A DNA stretch of 64,000 nucleotides from Thermoanaerobaculia bacterium. GTDB taxonomy: Bacteria; Acidobacteriota; Thermoanaerobaculia; Gp7-AA8. A program made the translations under genes and the position numbers. The stretch is from contig DASYJF010000145.1 of assembly GCA_035996815.1 (NCBI GenBank), forward strand, positions 24,345 to 88,344, given 5' to 3'. The notes beneath the pieces are model-generated. The model had not been told where the DNA came from and did not search any database. It saw nothing but the letters and a program-made list of their open reading frames with translations. This document shows positions 2,676-58,455 of this stretch, one piece after another (the first letter of the stretch is position 1; the number at the start of each line of letters is the position of its first letter).

Positions 2676-2762
2676 CGCGACAGAGCTTTTCACGCGGAGA
2701 CGCGGGGGCGCGGAGAAACCCGAATCCTCCTCCGCGTCTCCGCGACTCCGCGTGAAAAACGT
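2676..2762. repeat. Dispersed ~87-bp palindromic element, copy A, at the convergent junction prfC / GT39-like gene
   Basis: Internal inverted repeat ttttcacgcggagacgcgg / ccgcgactccgcgtgaaaa. Near-identical copy at 9430-9518. Confidence 0.6.
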
Positions 2763-4345
2763 CACCTTCGAAGCAGCATCGCGTTGAATCGCTCGCCGCG
2801 CCAGATGTTCTCAACGTGGTACTGCGCGCGCAGCAGCGCACCAGCCCGAAGGTCGTAATCGATGCCGAAGCCGCGCGCGCCGTACTCGCGCAGATCGCGG
2901 CTGACCATCAACACGCGATCAGGAGGATGCATCGTCAGCTCGCGCACGATCGCATCCTCCGTTTGCGGCGCATCGACTTCCACCGGCGTAAACGTGTGAA
3001 AGGAAAGTGTGGTCGGCACGTTCGCCAGATAGTTGATGGTGATGCCTTCCGGGATCACCGCCAGCGTCCCGCCCTGCACCGCGCCGATGACGCTGTTCAG
3101 CGTTCGCGCCCGATCAGCGTTCCAATCGTAAAAGATTCCCCGCGGCGACACGATCGCGTACCGCTTCTCCGCGTAGCGTTCGTGCTGTTGCCAGAGATCG
3201 CCGCCGGCGTTCGCGACGAATGGCGCGAGCCACAGGATGGCCATCACGTTCCGCCGCGGCAGATAGCAGAACAACGTGTATGCGGCCAGTGCGATCGTCG
3301 GAACCGTGAGCACGAAGCCGTACCAGGACGGCGAAACGTTCAACGGAATCCGGAGCGTGCAGGCCACCGAAAAGGCCGCGAAAATCACCAGCGGGCTCTC
3401 GCGGTCGCGCACGAGCGCCCATCCGAGCGCGATCCATTGCAGCACCGCCCAGGCCCGGAAGAAGGAATGGTCAGCGATCAGAACGGCAACGATCACGATG
3501 GCAATCGCCGCTAGCCAATGCCGCCATCGCTGCAGAAACAGAATCGCCGCGATGCCGGCAATGCCGGCGGCGATCTGCAGCAGTTGACCGCGCCAATCGG
3601 CGAATCCTGAGACGACCTCGAAGAAGTGCTTCGCCCGAGCACCGTGCTGCCACGCCGCAAAGACGTTCTCGCTCCACCAGTGCGTGTCGCGAAAGTAAAA
3701 CGCGACCGCCGCGATTGTCGCGATCATCGCGACGCAGTACGCCGCCAGTTGTCGCCACGAAATCCGCCTCGCTATCGTCAGGATGATTACGATCAACAAC
3801 CCCGCGACCGCGTACTCAAGCTTGCACCACGACGCCACTACCAGCGCGCTGATCGCGATCGCGTGCCGCGCGTGTACGAACGCGGCGAGCGCGATGCACA
3901 ACAACGTCATCCCTATCGTCACGCCGTAGCTGTACGGGAAGATGAAATTCGCGCCCCACGTCGACGCGCCGCAGAAGCACGTCGCCGCGAATGTCAGCGT
4001 CGCCGCGAATGCCGGCAACGGACGCCGTAACGCAATCCACAGCGATGCAGCAATCGTCGCCGACTGCGCGATCCCGATCGCCACATACGCCGTCAGCGAG
4101 TGACCGATCGCGCCGGTGATGAGCGCCAGCAAATACGGCGCAAGCGGCGGATATTGATAGCGGATGTCGCGATACAACTTCGCGCCGCGCGCAATCTGCT
4201 CCGGGATGTACAGATCGCGCCCCGTATCGATGATCGGATCGAGCCAGCGAGCGTAGGACTGGATGAATGCGAGCGCGGCGACGACAACAACGATTCCGAT
4301 GAAGACGGGTGTCAGGTGTCGGCTGTCAGGTGTCGGAGACTCATC
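2762..4345 (-). CDS. Polytopic membrane protein, GT39/ArnT-like glycosyltransferase fold (start uncertain, probably GTG)
   Basis: More than 10 predicted TM helices followed by a soluble C-terminal domain. The N-terminal 297 codons of the track ORF 2762..5275 overlap the upstream gene and are R/G-rich, so they were trimmed. Confidence 0.45.
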   Translation of the reverse strand, partial: DESPTPDSRHLTPVFIGIVVVVAALAFIQSYARWLDPIIDTGRDLYIPEQIARGAKLYRDIRYQYPPLAPYLLALITGAIGHSLTAYVAIGIAQSATIAASLWIALRRPLPAFAATLTFAATCFCGASTWGANFIFPYSYGVTIGMTLLCIALAAFVHARHAIAISALVVASWCKLEYAVAGLLIVIILTIARRISWRQLAAYCVAMIATIAAVAFYFRDTHWWSENVFAAWQHGARAKHFFEVVSGFADWRGQLLQIAAGIAGIAAILFLQRWRHWLAAIAIVIVAVLIADHSFFRAWAVLQWIALGWALVRDRESPLVIFAAFSVACTLRIPLNVSPSWYGFVLTVPTIALAAYTLFCYLPRRNVMAILWLAPFVANAGGDLWQQHERYAEKRYAIVSPRGIFYDWNADRARTLNSVIGAVQGGTLAVIPEGITINYLANVPTTLSFHTFTPVEVDAPQTEDAIVRELTMHPPDRVLMVSRDLREYGARGFGIDYDLRAGALLRAQYHVENIWRGERFNAMLLRR

Positions 4346-4383
4346 TCCCACGCCCAACTCCCGACTCCCCACTCCCCCGAATC

Positions 4384-9430: not shown

Positions 9431-9518
9431 AAGCTTTTCACGCGGAGTCGCGGGGTCGCGGAGAAAAGCTCTCAACCTCCGCGTCTCCGCGTCTCCGCGC
9501 GAAAAGGTTCTCTGTCGC
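9430..9518. repeat. Dispersed ~87-bp palindromic element, copy B, at the convergent junction metH / TPR gene
   Basis: agcttttcacgcggagtcgcggggtcgcggagaaa…cctccgcgtctccgcgtctccgcgcgaaaagg. About 85% identical to copy A and ends with the inverted form of copy A's start. Confidence 0.6.
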
Positions 9519-18773: not shown

Positions 18774-18857
18774 GGGAATGGGGGGTCGGGCGTCGGGGGT
18801 CGTAGAACCACACTTCCCCTCGGCACGCCCCGTGCAGTTTGACCGTGCCGAGCTGTC

Positions 18858-26250: not shown

Positions 26251-27381
26251 TCACGCCGTCAAACGCATCGGCATGACGACGTACAAATACTCGTACGCCA
26301 GATCTGCGTCATTCGACGACGGTCGGCCGATGCACTGGCTGTTCTCGTCCTTCAGATCGAGGGAAACCTGCTGCGTGTCGCAGACGCTCAAAAAGTCGGT
26401 CACGTACGCCGCGTTGAGGCCGACGAAGAACGGGTTGCCGGCGTAGTCGATGGGAACTGTCTCGCGCGCGTCGCCGAGCTCCGGATTGGTTGACGACACC
26501 GTCAGTTTGCCCGGCGCGAAATCGAATCGCACCGCGCGCGTGCGCTCGTTGGCGACGAGCGAGATGCGGCGGATCGTGGCCAGCAGCCGCTCGCGGTCGA
26601 CGAGGACTTTGCGATCGTTGTCGCGAGCGATGACTTCCATGTAGTTCGGAAAGTTGACGTCGATCATGCGCGCCAGCAGTCGGCGGTCGGCAGCCTCGAA
26701 GAAAAGGTGATTCTCGGAGACGCCGAATCGGACGTTGCCGTCTTCGCCGGCTTCGAGTCGCAGGATCTCTTCCATCGCCTTGCGGGGGATGAGAATGGTC
26801 AGGTCGGCGTCTTTCGACTTGCCGTTGCTGCTTTGCGGGAAGTTGATCAGCGCCATCCGATGGCCGTCGGTGGCCACCATCTCCATCTTGGCCGGTTGAA
26901 CCTTCAGCAGCGCGCCGTTGAGCTGAAAGCGCGTCTCCTCGTGCGTGATGGCGAACTTCACCTTGGCCACCATCGTTTTCAATTCTTCGAGCGGGATGTC
27001 GTACGACTGCGTCGCGTTCACCGTCGGCAGCGTCGGGTAGTCCTCGGCGGGCAATCCCAGGAGCCGGAACTTGGCGGTGCCGGAGTCGACGAGCAGCGAG
27101 TTGTTTTCCTGAAGGGTGATGTGAACGTCTTCGTCGGGCAGCGAGCGGACGATGTCGAAAAGGCGTTTCGCTTCGATGGTGACGCCGCCGGGCGCGGTGA
27201 CGCGCGCGGCGCAGGAGCTGAGGATGGTGACGTCGAGATCCGTTGCAGCCATCTGCAGCCGTCCGTCGGCGGCGCGGAGCAGAACATTCGAAAGGATCGG
27301 AATCGTGGAGCGTTTTTCGACGACTCCCTGGCAAAGCTGCAACTCTTTCTGAAGATCAGCTTTTGCGACGGTCAGCTCCAT
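26251..27381 (-). CDS. dnaN: DNA polymerase III beta sliding clamp
   Basis: 376 aa. MELTVAKADLQKEL…ATDLDV…: three-domain clamp architecture. Confidence 0.9.
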   Translation of the reverse strand: MELTVAKADLQKELQLCQGVVEKRSTIPILSNVLLRAADGRLQMAATDLDVTILSSCAARVTAPGGVTIEAKRLFDIVRSLPDEDVHITLQENNSLLVDSGTAKFRLLGLPAEDYPTLPTVNATQSYDIPLEELKTMVAKVKFAITHEETRFQLNGALLKVQPAKMEMVATDGHRMALINFPQSSNGKSKDADLTILIPRKAMEEILRLEAGEDGNVRFGVSENHLFFEAADRRLLARMIDVNFPNYMEVIARDNDRKVLVDRERLLATIRRISLVANERTRAVRFDFAPGKLTVSSTNPELGDARETVPIDYAGNPFFVGLNAAYVTDFLSVCDTQQVSLDLKDENSQCIGRPSSNDADLAYEYLYVVMPMRLTA

Positions 27382-27429
27382 GTCTCTTCCTTCAGAACAA
27401 AAGTCTTTTTAGTTAGTCGTGGAAGCAGT

Positions 27430-27628
27430 GGATGCGTGCGGAAAAACCTGGCATCGGGCTGCAAAGGTTTCGAAAGTATAGCAGTTCCTTCCGGAGTGAA
27501 ACTGCGGGTTTCGTCGCGGAAAAGCGAAGGAGATTTCCTCCGTTTTCCGCAGTCGTCGGGCATCGCGCGAGCGGCGCCTTTTTTGTCCGCAGGATTTGGT
27601 GGGACGTTTCCGCAGGGGCTGTGGATTT
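27430..27628. promoter_or_regulatory. Putative oriC module 1: a cluster of at least 6 DnaA-box-like 9-mers (TTTTCCGCA family) in the dnaN–dnaA spacer
   Basis: tgcggaaaa 27437-45; gcggaaaag 27516-24; ttttccgca 27543-51; ttgtccgca 27583-91; gtttccgca 27606-14; tgtggattt 27620-28. Confidence 0.45.
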
Positions 27629-28935
27629 CATCGAAACTGATTCATCAGCCCTTCGAGCACGCGCGCGAACTGCGGATCGTTCTGCATCTTCTCGTCGATC
27701 TTTTCGACCGAGTACATCACCGTCGAGTGATGCTTGTTATTGAAGACGCGGCCGATCTCCGGGTACGACAGATCCGTCAGGTGCTTGCAGAGATACATGG
27801 CCACCTGGCGCGGGAAGGCGACCGTCTGCGCGTTCGACTTCGACTTCAGATTCGTGACCGTCGTTCCGTAGTGCGCGGCGACGACGCGCATGATCTCGGT
27901 CGACGTAATCGGCTTGTTTTCCTTCGACAGCAGTTCTTTCAACGCTTCCTTCGTCAGTTCGAGTGAAAGGTGCTTTTGCCCTGCCATCGAGGCGTACACG
28001 ACGATGCGGTTGAGCAGTCCTTCCAGTTCGCGAATGTTCGTGCGCACGCGCTCGGCCACGAACAGCGCCGCGTCCTGCGGTAGATCGATCGTTCTCTCAT
28101 CGGCTTTTTTGCGGAGGATAGCCACCTTGGTCTCGAGGTCCGGCGGCTGGATGTCGGCGATGAGGCCCCATTCGAATCGCGAGCGAAGGCGCTCCTCGAG
28201 CGTCGTGATTTCTTTCGGCGGAGCATCCGAGGTGAAGACGATCTGCTTCTGGGCCTCGTAGAGCGCGTTGAAGGTATGGAAGAACTCCTCCTGCGTCTGC
28301 TCTTTGCCCGCCAGGAACTGAATGTCGTCGAGAAGCAGCGCGTCCACCTTGCGATAGCGGTCGCGGAACTGCTGCATGCGGTCGTAACGGATTGAGGTAA
28401 TGAACTCCGTGACGAAGGAGTCGGCCGACATGTAGACGATTTTCGATCCGGACATACTGTCGCGAAGCTGTTGGCCGATGGCTTGGATCAGATGGGTCTT
28501 GCCCAATCCGGCGCCGCCATAGATGAAGAGCGGATTTAAGGATCTCGCTGGATTCTCCGCGATCGACTTCGACGCCGCGAAGGCCAGCTCGTTCGACTTG
28601 CCGACTACGAACGTCTCGAACCGGTAGCGCGGATTGAAAATCGAGAGGGGCAGGTCGGTCGGCGGCGGTCCGAGCGGGACGTTCATCTCGCTGGTGCCCT
28701 CGGTGTCGGCGACGAGGTGCAGGTTGAGATGATCCGTCGACATCTCGTCGAGGATGGATCGGATCTGCTGCGCGTAGTTCTGGCGGATCTCGGACACGAA
28801 CCGCTGGGAAGGGACGCTTACGTCGATCGTGTCGCCCTTCTGGGCGAGGAAACGGGTCGGAGCGAACCACGTCTCAAATTGAGTCCTGTCAATGGTTTGC
28901 TCCAGCCGGTCGAGGACTTGCTTCCAGAGATTCAT
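27628..28935 (-). CDS. dnaA: Chromosomal replication initiator DnaA (start at MNLWKQV; the upstream 88 codons of the track ORF only translate a microsatellite)
   Basis: AAA+ Walker A GGAGLGKTHL and a domain IV HTH (…VAFPRQVAMYLCKHLTDLSYPEIGRVFN…HSTV). Confidence 0.9.
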   Translation of the reverse strand: MNLWKQVLDRLEQTIDRTQFETWFAPTRFLAQKGDTIDVSVPSQRFVSEIRQNYAQQIRSILDEMSTDHLNLHLVADTEGTSEMNVPLGPPPTDLPLSIFNPRYRFETFVVGKSNELAFAASKSIAENPARSLNPLFIYGGAGLGKTHLIQAIGQQLRDSMSGSKIVYMSADSFVTEFITSIRYDRMQQFRDRYRKVDALLLDDIQFLAGKEQTQEEFFHTFNALYEAQKQIVFTSDAPPKEITTLEERLRSRFEWGLIADIQPPDLETKVAILRKKADERTIDLPQDAALFVAERVRTNIRELEGLLNRIVVYASMAGQKHLSLELTKEALKELLSKENKPITSTEIMRVVAAHYGTTVTNLKSKSNAQTVAFPRQVAMYLCKHLTDLSYPEIGRVFNNKHHSTVMYSVEKIDEKMQNDPQFARVLEGLMNQFR

Positions 28936-29130
28936 CGCGGATTTCACAGAGGGCACGGCCAAGTCCACTGACTCTAATAATCCGCAGCTTTTCAACACCT
29001 GCGGAAAATCCGGACCTGAAAAAGGGGAGGCGAAGATAGCACAAACGTAGGAGTGGGGAGTGGCATTGGGATCCTCGGGAGTCGGGAGCCGGAAGCCCGG
29101 AGATTGACGAAGGGATATGCGTTCGCCTTT

Positions 29131-29172
29131 CCGACCCCCGACCCCCGACCCCCGACCCCCGACCCCCGACCC
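29131..29172. repeat. Hexanucleotide microsatellite (CCGACC)x6 plus one imperfect unit, upstream of dnaA; G-rich on the opposite strand (GGGGGTC)n
   Basis: Read directly. Flanked by the inverted pair gtaggagtggggagtgg (29047-63) / ccactccccactccctac (29198-215). Confidence 0.85.
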
Positions 29173-29326
29173 CCGAGGCCCCGATCTCCCACTCCCCACT
29201 CCCTACACCCCACTCCCCGGAATAGCCCGCTATGACCAATGGTTCCGCCCCGTCGCTGGCTGGTTTGACGACCTTCCGACCCGCCGCTATACTCCCCGCC
29301 TTCTTTTTCAGAAGCTTAAGGAAATC

Positions 29327-29461
29327 ATGAAGCGTACATTTCAGCCGAATAACCGCCGCCGCAAGCGCACGCACGGCTTTCTGGTCCGGATGCGGACCAA
29401 AGACGGGCAGGCGGTGCTTTCACGGCGCCGCCGCAAGGGCCGCAAGCGCCTGGCGGTCTAG
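29327..29461 (+). CDS. rpmH: 50S ribosomal protein L34
   Basis: [44 protein letters not shown]. Confidence 0.9.
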
Positions 29462-29464
29462 CCT

Positions 29465-29863
29465 TTGTCAGCCGATGCCGGCGGACGTTCCGCCAGCTCC
29501 GAGGCTCTGCCGAAAGAGAAACGATTGGCCAAACGCCGCGAGTTCCTTCGCGTCTACGAAGCCGGCCGCAAACTCTTTTCCCGATACAGCGTACTGTTCT
29601 ATGCCGCGAACGACCTCCCGTATTCGCGCATCGGCATCACCGCGACAAAAAAAAGTGGCAAGGCAAATGTGCGCAACCGGCTGAAACGGTGGACCCGCGA
29701 GGTCTACCGGCGTCAGCGCGGTCCCCTCGACCTCGACAGCCGCTCGCTCGACGTCGTCGTCAACGTGAAGCCAAATGCCGTGCAGGCGTCGTTCGGCGAC
29801 TACAGCCTCGACCTGCAACGCGCGCTCAAGCGCGTCGTGACCGAGAGCGGCGCCACCCGATGA
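29465..29863 (+). CDS. rnpA: RNase P protein component
   Basis: Position directly after rpmH, basic RNR motif (KANVRNRLKR), size ~130 aa. Confidence 0.8.
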   Translation: MSADAGGRSASSEALPKEKRLAKRREFLRVYEAGRKLFSRYSVLFYAANDLPYSRIGITATKKSGKANVRNRLKRWTREVYRRQRGPLDLDSRSLDVVVNVKPNAVQASFGDYSLDLQRALKRVVTESGATR

Positions 29864-31754: not shown

Positions 31755-32630
31755 GTGACGATGGCTCAACGATTCGAAGGTAAGAATCTCGACGAAGCAC
31801 TGACGATGGCGTCCGAAGCGTTCGGCGTCGACCGCGTGCAACTGACCTATCACGTAGTCCTGGAGAAGAAGGGTTTTCTCGGCGGCTTCAAACGCGTGGT
31901 CGTGGAAGCCGAAGTAAATGAGCGGCCGATCGCGGCCGCGGTTCAGGAGGCAGCAGCGCCAGCTCCCGGCGCGGCGCGGCGTCCCGGTGGTGGCGGCGGA
32001 CGTGGTCGTGGCAATCGCGATCGCGATCGTGGACGAGGACGCGGCGGAGATGGCGGCAATCGTGGCCCGCGTTCCGGCGGCGGCAATCGCGCTCCTCGGC
32101 GCGAAACCGCCGACGACTTTCAGACCGGCGACTTCGAACGCTTCGCCGGCGACATCCCCGAGCAGGGCCCGGAGTCCGAGCAGGCCGGCGTCGTGCGCGC
32201 CTGGTATTCGCGCGTTGTCGAACTGGCGAAACTGCAGCTGGAAATCCGCACCGAAGAGAATGAGACGCAGGTCATCGTACGGCTGTTCGGTGGAGATGCG
32301 CGGCTGCTGACCGAGGAACACGGCGAGCTTCTCGACGCGCTGCAGGTCCTCGGCAACAAAGCGCTCGTGGGCAGCAAAGTCGAAAAAGAGATCGAGCTGA
32401 ATTGCGAGGCGTTCAAAGAGCGCCGCGCCGAGCAGCTCGCGGAGAAGGCGAAGGAACTCGCGGATCGCGTGCGCAGCAGCGGACGCGAACAACTGCTTCC
32501 GGCGATGACGCCGATCGAGCGCCGCATCGTCCATCTCGCGCTGCAGGAAGACGCCGACGTCACGACGGAGTCGCGCGGCGAGGGGTTCTACAAGCGGGTG
32601 GCGGTTGTGATGCGCGGCGCGGCGGAGTAG
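31755..32630 (+). CDS. jag: Jag/KhpB-type RNA-binding protein (Jag-N, KH, R3H) with an RG-rich linker
   Basis: Jag N-domain MAQRFEGKNLDEALTMASEAFGV, C-terminal R3H (…TESRGEGFYKRVAV), position after yidC. Confidence 0.75.
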   Translation: MTMAQRFEGKNLDEALTMASEAFGVDRVQLTYHVVLEKKGFLGGFKRVVVEAEVNERPIAAAVQEAAAPAPGAARRPGGGGGRGRGNRDRDRGRGRGGDGGNRGPRSGGGNRAPRRETADDFQTGDFERFAGDIPEQGPESEQAGVVRAWYSRVVELAKLQLEIRTEENETQVIVRLFGGDARLLTEEHGELLDALQVLGNKALVGSKVEKEIELNCEAFKERRAEQLAEKAKELADRVRSSGREQLLPAMTPIERRIVHLALQEDADVTTESRGEGFYKRVAVVMRGAAE

Positions 32631-38760: not shown

Positions 38761-38799
38761 CGCTGCGGTGCGAGCATCGACTGCAGCAATATGACAAAC

Positions 38800-38967
38800 G
38801 ATTGCAGAGCTGCGATCGGTGATTACGGAGCTGCGATCGGCGATTACAGAGTTTCGATCGACGATTACAGAGTTGCGATCAACGATTACAGAGCTGTGAT
38901 CGATGATTACAGCGATGTCCAGATTTGTCGCAGAGCTGTAATGGCTGATTACAGCTACGTCTGGATG
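38800..38967. repeat. 21-bp-period tandem array A (5 good + 3 degenerate units; consensus gattacagagctgcgatcggc)
   Basis: Read directly. The array is contiguous with no unique spacers, so it is not a CRISPR. Confidence 0.8.
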
Positions 38968-55682: not shown

Positions 55683-56060
55683 ATTCAAAACACAATCTCC
55701 TTGAATCGCAGACAAATCCTCTGATTCAGTCGACAGACTCTCTGGGTCGTTAGACAGACTTTTTGGATCGTTAGACACAGTTTTTGGACCGCGAGACATA
55801 CTTTCTGGGTCGTTAGACACACTTTTTGGATAGCGAGACCCACTCTCTGGATAGCGAGACAGACTCTTTGGGTCGCTAGACAGATTGATTCGATCGGATG
55901 ACCCACTTCATGGGTCGACTGACATACTTTTGGATCGCTAACCAAACTTCCTGGGTCAGCAGACAGGCTCTTTGGGTCAATCGGCAATACGCTTGGGCCG
56001 CTCAACTCGTGGTTTGGTTCGGTAGATCAACCGTTTGATCGGTAGGCGTGCAGGATCGGC
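55683..56060. repeat. 21-bp-period degenerate tandem array B (~17 units; consensus tggatcgttagacagactttt), lower GC than its surroundings
   Basis: Read directly. The units are contiguous and degenerate, with no spacers. Confidence 0.75.
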
Positions 56061-56131: not shown

Positions 56132-57055
56132 ATGAAAAAGCTCGTCATCGACATCGAAACCGTCGGCACTCCCTGGGAAGAGCTTGATGCCTACGTCCGC
56201 GAGTACCTGATCAAAGGACTCAGCGATGGGGATGCTGAGGAGACGAGGCGCGCGGGCGGATTGTCGCCGTTCCGCGGACGCATCATTGCCATCGGCGTCA
56301 TCAACATCGAAGACGGTCGCTCGTGCGCCATGTACGAGGTGCCGGGGCAGACGCAGATTTCGGTCGAGAAGGCCGGCCAGCGAACCTACATCTCGGGTAG
56401 TGAGAAGCAGATCCTCGAAAAGTTCTGGGAGTTCTTCGAGGGTGATTCGCGCTTCATCACCTTCAACGGCCGGCAGTTCGACGGTCCATTCCTGATGATC
56501 CGTTCCGCGATCAACGGCATCATTCCGAAGCGCGACTTGGTCGGGTATCGCTACGGCTATCACCCGAACTGCGATCTGCGCGAAGCGCTTAACTTCTTCG
56601 GCACCACGAACGCGCGGCAGTTCAAATTCAACCTCGACCTCGCTTGCAAAGTCTTCGGTGTCGAGACGTCGAAGGGCGAAGGGCTCGATGGGCGTTCGGT
56701 CGAGACATGGTATCGCGCCGGACGGCATCGCGAGATTGCTGATTACTGCCTCGATGACGTTCGAGCCACGTGCGAGTTGTACGAGAAGGTCGCGACGTCG
56801 CTGCTCATGTTCAACAAGGAGTTTCGCGAGGCCGAGGAGCGCGCTGCGCGGATGCGGCGTCAGTCAGAGTTGCCGCTGGCGCCGTCGAACGAAAGCTTGT
56901 TCATCGAGTCGGTGACGAAGACCTCGATCGCGCTTTCCGAGTCGCTCGATGCGCCCGAGCCGGTGGCCGTGATCACGGGCACGCTCGAGGCCGTCGTTCT
57001 GGAAAAGCTGATTCGTCCAGCCGATGAAGAGGAAGAGATTCCGTCCGGCGTGTGA
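56132..57055 (+). CDS. RNase H-like 3'-5' exonuclease (PolB-exonuclease-like)
   Basis: Exo I motif LVIDIETVG, Exo II FNGRQFDGPFL, Exo III YCLDDVRAT. Confidence 0.6.
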   Translation: MKKLVIDIETVGTPWEELDAYVREYLIKGLSDGDAEETRRAGGLSPFRGRIIAIGVINIEDGRSCAMYEVPGQTQISVEKAGQRTYISGSEKQILEKFWEFFEGDSRFITFNGRQFDGPFLMIRSAINGIIPKRDLVGYRYGYHPNCDLREALNFFGTTNARQFKFNLDLACKVFGVETSKGEGLDGRSVETWYRAGRHREIADYCLDDVRATCELYEKVATSLLMFNKEFREAEERAARMRRQSELPLAPSNESLFIESVTKTSIALSESLDAPEPVAVITGTLEAVVLEKLIRPADEEEEIPSGV

Positions 57056-57077: not shown

Positions 57078-58367
57078 GTGAAACTGTTTCGCGGCCGGAT
57101 TTTTTCGCCGATTGCTGATCCCTTCACCGTCGATCCGGCGAAGTCGTATGTCTACTACGACGACGGCTTTCTGGCAGTCGACGGCGATCGGATCACCGGC
57201 GTCGGTGCATGGCGCGACGTTCCGCGGCAGAGCTCGACGCTGACGCAACTCGGACGCGATGTCCTCATCACGCCGGGATTTGTCGACACGCACCTTCACG
57301 CGCCGCAGCTCGAGATGATCGGATCGTACGGCGGCGACCTGCTCGAGTGGCTTAACCGCTACACGTTTCCGACCGAGGCCAAGTTCAGCGATCCGAAGCA
57401 TGCGGAGATGGTGGCGCGTATCTTTTTCGAGGAGCTGCTGCGCAACGGGACGTTGTGCGCGCTGATCTTTTCCACGATTCACGAACGCGCCACGGAGATT
57501 TTTTTCGAGGAAGCGGAGCGGCGCGGATTCCGGGCAATCATCGGCAAGACGATGATGGATCGCAATGCGCCGCCCTCGTTGCTGGAAACGCCGAAGCAGT
57601 CGTACGACGAGAGCCGCGCGCTACTTCAGAAATGGCACAAGCGTGGACTGCTGCGTTACGCGATCACGCCGCGCTTCGCGCCGACGTCGACGCCGGAGTT
57701 GCTCGAAGCGGCGGGACAACTCAAGCGCGAGTTCCCGGATGCGTACGTTCACTCGCACATCTCCGAGAATCGCAACGAGGTGCAGTGGGTTCACGACCTC
57801 TTCCCCGAGGCCGAGTACGCGGATGTGTACGATCGGTATGGCCTGCTCGACGAGCGCAGCGTCCTCGCGCACGGCGTCCACCTGACGGAAGAAGAGCTGG
57901 AACTACTCGCGCATCGCGGCACGCGCATCGCGCACTGCCCGAATTCAAACCTCTTCCTCGGCAGCGGCCTTTTCCGCCTTCACCACACGCTCGAAGCCGG
58001 CGTCGTCGTCGGCCTCGGCACGGACATTGGCGCAGGCACGACGCCGTCGATGTTCACGACGATGTCGGACGCGTACAAAGTCCAGCAGGTACAAGGCGTG
58101 TCGCTGACTCCGTTTCACCTCTGGTACCTGGCCTCGCTCGGCGGGGCGCGCGCGTTGTCGCTGGATGCCGAGTCCGGCAGTCTGGAGCCTGGCAAGTCGG
58201 CCGACTTTCTCCAGCTCGATCTGAAGTCGACACCGCTCGTTGCCTTGCGAAGCGAACGCGCATCCTCGGTCGAAGATCTCCTCGCCGGACTGATCTTCAC
58301 CGCCGACGATCGCGTCGTCCGCGAGTGCTGGATCGCCGGGCAAGTGGTCGCGACGCGGAGCCCGTGA
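57078..58367 (+). CDS. guaD: Guanine deaminase
   Basis: Amidohydrolase HxH (FVDTHLHAPQ), HSHISEN, HCPNSN, GLGTDIGAG. Confidence 0.8.
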   Translation: MKLFRGRIFSPIADPFTVDPAKSYVYYDDGFLAVDGDRITGVGAWRDVPRQSSTLTQLGRDVLITPGFVDTHLHAPQLEMIGSYGGDLLEWLNRYTFPTEAKFSDPKHAEMVARIFFEELLRNGTLCALIFSTIHERATEIFFEEAERRGFRAIIGKTMMDRNAPPSLLETPKQSYDESRALLQKWHKRGLLRYAITPRFAPTSTPELLEAAGQLKREFPDAYVHSHISENRNEVQWVHDLFPEAEYADVYDRYGLLDERSVLAHGVHLTEEELELLAHRGTRIAHCPNSNLFLGSGLFRLHHTLEAGVVVGLGTDIGAGTTPSMFTTMSDAYKVQQVQGVSLTPFHLWYLASLGGARALSLDAESGSLEPGKSADFLQLDLKSTPLVALRSERASSVEDLLAGLIFTADDRVVRECWIAGQVVATRSP

Positions 58368-58455
58368 GTGGATTAGTGGATTCGTCGATTAGTAGATTAG
58401 GACGCTGCTTGGGGATCTCCGCTCTAATCGACTAATCCACCAATCGACTAATCAC
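58368..58455. terminator. Long imperfect palindrome built from GATTAG/CTAATC units (32-bp arms, 23-nt spacer) right after guaD
   Basis: gtggattagtggattcgtcgattagtagattag … ctaatcgactaatccaccaatcgactaatcac. Confidence 0.5.

Follow-up and report, generated by a model that had tools for sequence, protein, structure and literature searches.

A lineage-specific tandem-repeat hairpin between dnaA and rpmH in a Thermoanaerobaculia bacterium

In a 64-kb stretch of contig DASYJF010000145.1 from a Thermoanaerobaculia (Acidobacteriota) bacterium, which is called the window throughout this text, a perfect short tandem repeat lies in the spacer that separates dnaA from the divergently oriented rpmH gene. 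This position raises the question of whether the repeat takes part in controlling dnaA or the replication origin (oriC), as a preliminary description of this DNA had proposed, or whether it is a product of repeat mutation in DNA that is free to change. We put the probability at about 0.62 that the tract is a fast-evolving, lineage-specific tandem-repeat hairpin in unconstrained spacer DNA, made by slippage, with no conserved role in the control of dnaA or in oriC.

A nested hairpin built of heptamer repeats

The tract is a non-coding, intergenic array in the 391-bp divergent dnaA-rpmH spacer (28936-29326; coordinates of all features are collected in Table 1), and it exceeds what is expected by chance. 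Specifically, no perfect tandem of 5-10-nt units exceeded 3.0 copies when the window was shuffled 20 times, versus 6.57 copies in the array. The repeat tract first reported upstream of dnaA is therefore real, but its unit is the heptamer (CCGACCC)x6.6 rather than seven copies of CCGACC, and it extends to 29176 rather than 29172. Tandem Repeats Finder (TRF) returned a period of 7, a score of 92 and 100% matches for this array, which reads (GGGGGTC)n on the dnaA-sense strand and has a G+C content of 85% (the 64-kb window has about 62%).

The array is one arm of a larger structure. Its partner on the left is a shorter and degenerate array, with the segments CCTCGGGAGTCGGGAGCCGG (29073-29092) and CCGACCCCCGACCCCCGAGG (29159-29178) being 85% complementary, and this left arm pairs with about three of the 6.6 right-arm units, leaving about four surplus units in the apical loop. 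Outside these inner arms there is a second pair, GTAGGAGTGGGGAGTGG at 29047-29063 with CCACTCCCCACTCCCTAC at 29189-29206, that is built of a second unit family, (GGAGTGG)n on the left and (CCACTCC)n on the right, and that has a 14-nt core with 100% complementarity and a 1-nt bulge. These outer arms correspond to the inverted 17-mers that had been described as flanking the tract. The inverted repeats stand, with a perfect 14-nt core, although the left one begins at 29047 and both form, together with the array, a single hairpin at 29047-29217. When folded as single-stranded DNA, the 201-nt region adopts one long imperfect stem of -37.9 kcal/mol (z-score relative to shuffles, z, of -3.0). Because the right array is perfectly homogeneous and its left partner has diverged, it seems that a single arm has recently expanded.

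Two open reading frames (ORFs) cross the heptamer array, namely ORF 27628-29199 (523 aa, GTG start), which extends dnaA, and an in-frame upstream extension of rpmH at 29117-29461. Both extensions are spurious because DnaA is 434-436 aa long in nine of ten relatives and because the rpmH promoter lies inside the rpmH extension; the DnaA of locus L088 had likewise been called with a false N-terminus of 60 residues. This agrees with the earlier suspicion that the 5' extension of dnaA is an artefact, DnaA starting at 28935, and it speaks against the possibility raised alongside it that the tract encodes a longer, conserved DnaA N-terminus. A practical consequence is that gene callers can err at this locus, where false 5' extensions of both genes run through the repeat.

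Several other identities considered for the element were set aside. One was that the array arose by duplication of the rpmH promoter spacer, as CGCCTTTCCGACCC (29124) resembles CGACCTTCCGACCC (29269); this resemblance amounts to 86% identity over 14 nt and is possibly due to chance. The hairpin is also not an intrinsic terminator, as it has no U-tract and lies between divergent gene starts, and a scan gave no terminator-like site in 29047-29217. At gathering score the sole Rfam 15 match in the window was a tRNA, and in E-value mode the hairpin returned only sub-threshold eukaryotic microRNA precursors (for example 45.6 bits relative to a threshold of 168), matches that reflect generic long-hairpin similarity and are meaningless here.

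Turnover of the spacer between conserved flanks

Relatives of the locus were collected in three ways. The L34 protein encoded by rpmH is identical over a wide set of relatives, and an exact-protein look-up gave ten loci with the same gene order. An exact look-up of DnaA gave two contigs from different Joint Genome Institute (JGI) samples, and a scan of metagenomes with the conserved dnaA-proximal block as pattern gave 19 further congeneric loci. The two JGI contigs match the window with 100% identity along 5.3-7.3 kb, a stretch that takes in the 391-bp spacer, and the copy number of the array is the same. An exact 21-mer from the hairpin loop had no match among metagenome contigs, and no further same-species copies were gained for repeat counting. 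The dnaA genes of the congeners share 83-91% nucleotide identity with that of the window, and among species-representative genomes the nearest is a Thermoanaerobaculia (Acidobacteriota) metagenome-assembled genome with a DnaA identity of 72%.

An alignment of seven congeners shows that the blocks at 28936-29046 and 29218-29326 are conserved and that the unalignable middle coincides exactly with the hairpin at 29047-29217. Counting the window, the genus contains 23 distinct spacer variants, and the heptamer of the window is present in none of the 22 others. Five of the 23 variants have unstructured spacers of ~30 nt (L087, L090, L096, L094 and L101), one (L082) has a short (TATTGC)x2.8 array, and repeat-free spacers of 93-104 nt occur in the L081 type (three near-identical variants) and in L102. 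A one-armed octamer array, (AGTRGATC)x3-4, is found in six variants. The remaining seven, which include the window, have long hairpins with tandem-repeat stems that belong to four unit families (z from -2.1 to -13.6). For example, the hairpins of L086 and L104 are built of AGTRGATC/GATCYACT units, and those of L093, L098, L105 and L099 have the outer arms GCGGTTGC/GCGGTCTC, to which L098, L105 and L099 add an inner layer of GGTTGCTG or GGTTGCCC units. The L099 hairpin mirrors the architecture of the window element in that it is nested and has an rpmH-side inner array of (GGCAACCC)x15 versus x3 on the opposite side. The existence of ~30-nt unstructured spacers and of variants without a significant hairpin indicates that the hairpin is dispensable in close relatives. 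Furthermore, the two conserved blocks may be as little as about 30 bp or as much as about 240 bp apart in congeners, indicating that the spacing between them is not critical.

Turnover at this site is fast. Loci L093 and L105 have flanks that are 99.2% identical and repeat arms that differ by about 80 bp, and L099 and L105, with flanks about 97.5% identical, differ both in their inner units and in copy numbers. One core, GCAACCAAC, is common to the arrays of L093, L098, L099 and L105 and also occurs once in the non-repetitive L081-type spacer; this shared core favours growth in place from local sequence. When the sites of L087 and L090 are taken as empty, no direct repeat that could be a target-site duplication is seen at the junctions. 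The idea that the arms grew around an ancestral core was rejected, as the hairpin loops matched the short spacers of L087, L090 and L096 no better than shuffles did, one weak 11-nt match aside. Further afield, L001 (a Thermoanaerobaculia locus with 72% identity) has an unrelated inverted repeat, perfect over its 37-bp arms, in the equivalent dnaA-rpmH position (L001 2770-2870). As an orthologous site with many independent versions, the dnaA-rpmH spacer offers a natural series for the birth, one-arm expansion and decay of repeat palindromes, and it is a potential strain-typing marker for the genus in metagenomes.

The conserved blocks on either side have recognizable contents. On the dnaA side, a putative extended -10 promoter of dnaA, TGcTATCTT reading from 29041 to 29033, is kept as TGnTATNTT across the genus (TGGTATCTT in L082 and L094; TGCTATATT in L093, L098, L099 and L105) and reads TGCTAGACT in the family-level relatives L001, L083 and L085 (69-72%). 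With this assignment the hairpin would start some 6 bp upstream of the element, in the region expected for a -35. On the rpmH side, the candidate rpmH promoter TTGACG-17-TATACT at 29265-29293 matches the consensus at 10 of 12 positions and is the sole sigma-70-type hit in 27300-29500. Judged from these candidate promoters, the heptamer array would lie about 90 bp upstream of both cores, in DNA that is probably untranscribed. The ~47 bp upstream of the rpmH -35 (29218-29264) are also conserved across the genus and include the near-palindrome TAGCCCGCTA, and a GGAATAG within them is kept in family-level relatives too; this segment might bind a regulator or act as another promoter.

As for the origin, there is no E. 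coli-type DnaA box, TTATCCACA, near dnaA. The lineage-type box TTTTCCGCA occurs in perfect form three times in the 64 kb, at 27437, 27543 and 29000, and all three adjoin dnaA. The last of these (29000-29008, minus strand) is within the dnaA-side palindrome, which is 40-70 bp from the hairpin. The dnaA-dnaN spacer contains five boxes of the TTTTCCGCA type (no more than one mismatch) at 27437-27614 and has a lower-GC end beside dnaN, which makes it the probable oriC, accompanied by one or two boxes on the upstream side of dnaA. The hairpin at 29047-29217 contains neither TTATCCACA nor TTTTCCGCA boxes at up to one mismatch. Clusters of DnaA boxes, or a bipartite oriC, flank dnaA in Bacillus subtilis and Helicobacter pylori, and the window tract resembles these in adjoining dnaA with a DnaA-box palindrome nearby. 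It differs from them in lacking boxes, conservation and an AT-rich unwinding element (70% G+C, 85% in the array), three features that would be expected of an oriC module. The palindrome itself has the form ATCCGCAG...CTGCGGA in the window's genus versus ATCCACAG...CTGTGGA in more distant relatives (L086, L083, L085 and L001 were compared), so that both arms changed together; either a hairpin has been conserved, or inverted DnaA boxes may have changed in concert.

Related repeats in the window and in known systems

The dnaA-upstream array is one of a class. Eight of the nine period-7/8 arrays in the window are intergenic, versus only about 12-14% of its DNA, and so are nine of the ten GGGGGTC heptamers in the 64 kb. 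Arrays of period 7-8 number about 20 per 100 kb in the window; the corresponding density is about 4 per 100 kb when 79 other dnaA loci are surveyed. The two related sites that had been pointed out before are both real, these being (CCCACTC)x4.4 at 4347-4377 and (GGGGGTC)x3.1 after rng, although the tandem at 4306-4336 next to the former has a period of 14 nt (or 7 nt) and not 13. By blastn, 4343-4382 is 87.5% identical over 40 nt to 29184-29223, which spans the right outer arm of the hairpin. A partner arm for the (GGGGGTC)3 after rng was sought and rejected (fold z of +0.4, no better than shuffles).

Two further hairpins, at 2684-2758 and 9432-9505, have arms of octamers and are 85% identical full-length copies of each other (75 nt). 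In the second copy each 8-nt unit gives seven base pairs and a T.T mismatch. Neither is a canonical intrinsic terminator, as there is no U-tail and the TTTTC/GAAAA merely lengthens the stem. The unit family AGTRGATY of the hairpin at 58365-58453 also builds the dnaA-upstream hairpins of L086 and L104, and heptamer-stem hairpins are present in other Acidobacteriota after dnaN (L001) and upstream of dnaA (L002, L018 and L020). Little-studied soil Acidobacteriota thus carry heptamer and octamer repeat hairpins like those described in Xanthomonas and cyanobacteria.

Among described repeats, the nearest to the window element are intergenic G-rich heptamers in Xanthomonas (GGGAATC) and in Nostoc (GGGGA[C/T]T), which are dispersed, non-coding, variable in copy number and able to form G-quadruplexes (G4) in vitro (Rehm et al. 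2015, PMC4692102). Xanthomonas has about 70 convergent inverted heptamer pairs per genome that are capable of forming stem-loops or cruciforms, and the cyanobacterial short tandemly repeated repetitive (STRR) heptamers cited in the same work belong to this class as well (PMC4692102). The window element has the sequence-level characters by which this class is defined. Like its members, the array has a head-to-tail 7-nt unit with a G-run; its GGGGGTC is dispersed (there is a second array at 18781-18802) and mostly intergenic within the 64 kb surveyed; and it pairs, in the manner of the Xanthomonas convergent pairs, with the 85% complementary (GGGAGYC)3 at 29073-29097. As for unit number, the array itself is identical in two assemblies and absent from all congeners, and the arrays at its position in relatives vary between flanks that are 97-99% identical. 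There are also differences. The G4 potential, which is established in vitro for the known repeats, is in silico for the window array; both the unit (GGGGGTC) and the phylum (Acidobacteriota) are different; the outer arms of the nested hairpin are made of a second unit family; and the window genome has several 7- and 8-nt unit families with none dominant. In addition, the array lies between divergent genes, a context that is under-represented in PMC4692102.

A second precedent is the (ATCTTTC)n repeat of Haemophilus influenzae hmw1A/hmw2A, which forms one arm of a hairpin in the 5' untranslated region (5'-UTR); this hairpin sets expression and is required for the instability of the repeat (PMC12721329). 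This repeat lies in the mapped 5'-UTR of a contingency adhesin gene, is present at all hmw loci and has 11 or more copies, whose number sets expression (PMC12721329). The window array is similar in being one arm of a hairpin upstream of a gene with a shorter, non-expanded partner, and it is dissimilar in that it seems to be located upstream of an essential gene's promoter and is absent from relatives. An incomplete coverage of the literature yielded no description of such repeat hairpins in Acidobacteriota or Thermoanaerobaculia, or in dnaA-rpmH spacers.

Origin of the hairpin and alternative readings

We propose that the element is an intergenic palindrome with stems of 7-8-nt simple-sequence repeats, of a kind that is scattered in the window genome and in other Acidobacteriota, and that it occupies a functionally unconstrained spacer between the conserved dnaA block and the rpmH promoter block. 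It would form and change in place and not by insertion. Specifically, slipped-strand mispairing in the arrays, together with misaligned pairing of the hairpin, could add or remove units, sometimes in one arm only, and such a one-arm gain would have given the 6.6 perfect units that now face about 3 degenerate partner units; later deletions would then erase elements. The element would not be needed for the function of dnaA, rpmH or the origin, and any effect that it has on promoters would likely be incidental and structural, through a cruciform, a G4 or an i-motif in DNA that divergent transcription supercoils negatively. Observed are the anatomy of the hairpin, its lack of conservation, its turnover and its place in a wider class of repeats; the slippage mechanism, the promoter positions and the lack of a dedicated function are proposals.

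Several observations weigh against this proposal. CCCACTC occurs at two window loci, and AGTRGATY both at 58365 and in the dnaA spacers of congeners; local slippage from random seeds leaves this recurrence of units across loci and species unexplained. The full-length octamer copies at 2684-2758 and 9432-9505 are another such point, and a copying mechanism or selection for particular units may be involved. Hairpins also recur at one spot across lineages, including the inverted repeat of L001; pure local slippage leaves this unexplained as well, and it could reflect selection for structure. Finally, the window array is identical in two assemblies, with variation being seen only at the arrays of relatives, and the dnaA and rpmH promoters are placed from sequence features.

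Selection for structure is the basis of an alternative that we consider unlikely. In this alternative a palindrome capable of forming a cruciform or a G4 would be kept at the site for taking up negative supercoils between the back-to-back dnaA and rpmH promoters, or for insulating these promoters or the nearby origin, and its sequence would be free to vary as long as a hairpin persists. The twin-domain model predicts negative supercoiling between divergent promoters, which is where the tract is located. Unrelated hairpins occupy the same position in the window, L086, L104, L093, L098, L099, L105 and L001, and the window tract has a strong in silico G4 capacity. However, the five ~30-nt spacers are unstructured and another ten or so variants have no significant hairpin (z about 0). 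The window hairpin is moreover the weakest of the seven (z from -2.1 to -3.0), and hairpins of the same type are also found at ordinary gene ends.

The G4 capacity was further analyzed. G4Hunter gave a score of 2.54 for the minus-strand array, and 29120-29230 is the strongest G4-prone block of the 64 kb. When ViennaRNA was run with G-quadruplexes allowed (RNA parameters), the hairpin was kept and a four-tract G4 formed on the surplus repeats, with an energy about 31 kcal/mol lower; G4 formation by the array is thus physically plausible in these models. The earlier claim of a strongly G4-prone tract holds in silico to this extent, but the capacity is not common to the elements of relatives. Most hairpins at the same position have no runs of three or more G (units AGTRGATC, GCGGTTGC and GGTTGCTG), and the sole one with G4 capacity is that built of (GGGTTGCC)n in L099. 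Since the same-position hairpins of relatives, L099 excepted, do not share it, the G4 capacity looks incidental to the unit sequence. The property that these elements have in common is tandem periodicity with self-complementarity, and not G4 formation.

Two further alternatives are quite improbable in our view. One is that an undescribed process in this acidobacterial lineage builds and remodels nested palindromes of 7-8-nt repeats, that the DNA immediately upstream of the dnaA promoter, beside the origin, is a preferred and possibly selected site for it, and that the hairpin, cruciform or G4 couples supercoiling or replication to the expression of dnaA and rpmH. In that case the arms would grow together, via out-of-register pairing of the hairpin followed by fill-in.

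The other is that the element is a mobile or copied palindrome, inserted at this spot in the manner of repetitive extragenic palindromic (REP) sequences and bacterial interspersed mosaic elements (BIMEs) or of MITEs (miniature inverted-repeat transposable elements). REP sequences and BIMEs of proteobacteria are dispersed, imperfect intergenic palindromes that are often found at gene ends or between convergent genes, and the octamer hairpin copies of the window are like them in this regard. The right outer arm of the dnaA-upstream hairpin with its edges (29184-29223) recurs at 4343-4382 with the 87.5% identity given above, another hairpin family has two full-length copies, and unit families are common to several loci and species. 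Against insertion, no second full-length copy of the window hairpin was found in the 64 kb and no target-site duplication is seen relative to the empty L087 and L090 sites. There is also no transposase of the REP-associated tyrosine (RAYT) or insertion sequence (IS) type among the genes at the locus, the neighbours being dnaN, dnaA, rpmH, rnpA, yidD, yidC and jag. Moreover, close relatives differ by the number of units, and the arrays share seeds with local non-repeat sequence. Unlike REP sequences and BIMEs, the arms in the window are internally tandem-repetitive and shift in length by whole units.

An hmw-type leader is very doubtful. It supposes that a distal dnaA promoter in the right conserved block transcribes the repeat and that a hairpin or G4 in the resulting 5'-UTR RNA tunes dnaA according to repeat number. 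The entire spacer, when folded as dnaA-sense RNA, gives -197 kcal/mol (z of -4.8), an RNA G4 is predicted on the surplus repeats, the H. influenzae repeats provide a precedent (PMC12721329), and the conserved segment 29218-29264 has no assigned role. However, the promoter scan gave no leftward promoter to the right of the hairpin, and the conserved putative extended -10 at 29033-29041 is downstream of the hairpin. The window repeat is also absent from all congeners, and dnaA is an essential housekeeping gene and not a contingency gene.

Least probable is the suggestion of the preliminary description that gain and loss of units act as a phase-variable switch, altering promoter geometry to switch or grade dnaA expression or origin firing. 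In its favour, an array of 6.6 perfect copies would in principle be prone to slippage, and arrays at this site do differ between strains of relatives. Against it, the window array is not coding and would lie ~90 bp upstream of both candidate core promoters and not between a -35 and a -10, congeners have anything from about 30 to 240 bp between the conserved blocks, two samples show the same copy number, DnaA boxes are absent from the tract and the repeat is not retained at the locus (0/22 other variants). Of the copy-number variation that was predicted along with the switch, the part that bears out is hypervariability of the relatives' elements at this position, while the window array itself is the same in both assemblies. 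The tract had also been placed in a dnaA promoter/oriC module, and it is not part of a conserved one: the hairpin falls between the conserved blocks, has no DnaA boxes and carries a heptamer that no other variant has. The tempting idea that the master replication initiator is switched by a G4 or by phase variation is thus left unsupported, and the preferred reading remains that of a repeat hairpin that arose in place in the unconstrained spacer.

Table 1. Features of the dnaA-rpmH locus and of related repeats, in window coordinates
Feature	Position	Strand	Basis or remark
Whole nested imperfect hairpin, lineage-specific hypervariable insert	29047-29217		171 bp, 70% G+C; fold, alignment
Perfect heptamer array (CCGACCC)x6.6, expanded inner right arm	29131-29176	+ (reading)	TRF, repeat search, shuffle control
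Inner left arm, degenerate (GGGAGYC)x3.3	29073-29097		Repeat search, census, fold
Outer left arm GTAGGAGTGGGGAGTGG = (GGAGTGG)x2	29047-29063		Repeat search, fold
Outer right arm (CCCACTC)x4.4	29188-29218		TRF, repeat search, blastn
Unique apical loop sequence	29098-29130		Fold
Conserved dnaA-proximal block: leader, DnaA-box palindrome, putative core promoter	28936-29046	-	Alignment; 19 further loci retrieved with this block
Putative extended -10 of dnaA, TGcTATCTT	29033-29041	-	Conservation only
Palindrome ATCCGCAG...CTGCGGAAAA	28980-29008		Holds perfect lineage-type DnaA box
Conserved rpmH-proximal block with candidate rpmH promoter	29218-29326	+	Alignment, promoter scan
dnaA-dnaN spacer (246 bp), probable oriC	27382-27627		Five TTTTCCGCA-type boxes; lower-GC end beside dnaN
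dnaA	27628-28935	-	435 aa; start MNLWKQV at 28935; Pfam calls on orthologues
rpmH	29327-29461	+	L34, 44 aa; rnpA, yidD, yidC, jag next
(GGGGGTC)x3.1	18781-18802 (entry 18779-18802)	+	6 nt after rng (RNase E/G) stop codon; TRF
(GGTGTCA)x3.9 then (CCCACTC)x4.4	4306-4377		TRF; weak hairpin potential, z -1.6
Octamer-arm hairpin (ACGCGGAG)3/(CTCCGCGT)3	2684-2758		Between convergent prfC and unknown gene; z -8.3
Second copy of octamer hairpin	9432-9505		Between metH and convergent TPR gene; z -8.1
Hairpin with (AGTRGATT)n arms	58365-58453		TRF, fold

The genes at the locus are, in order, recF, dnaN and dnaA on the minus strand and then rpmH, rnpA, yidD, yidC and jag on the plus strand. Elsewhere in the window there are repeats of longer period. 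A 21-bp tandem of 5.5 copies (ATTACAGAGCTGCGATCGNCG) is located at 38798-38912 between convergent genes, with degenerate copies continuing to about 38960, and its period of two helical turns suggests an array of protein-binding sites. Another 21-bp repeat, GACAGACTYTYTGGRTCGYTA, has about 12 units with a 63-bp super-period at 55732-55990 and sits in a 1.3-kb gene-free stretch upstream of a gene whose start is at 56132. Inside the jag-like gene of congeners there are perfect hexamer repeats, and their units differ (CGTGGC, GCGGAC and CGTGAC; L081 5689-5706, L087 5668-5703, L082 5674-5688 and L090 5678-5693), and the orthologous jag-like gene of the window has ATCGCG x2.7 at 32014-32029, making this a variable coding repeat.

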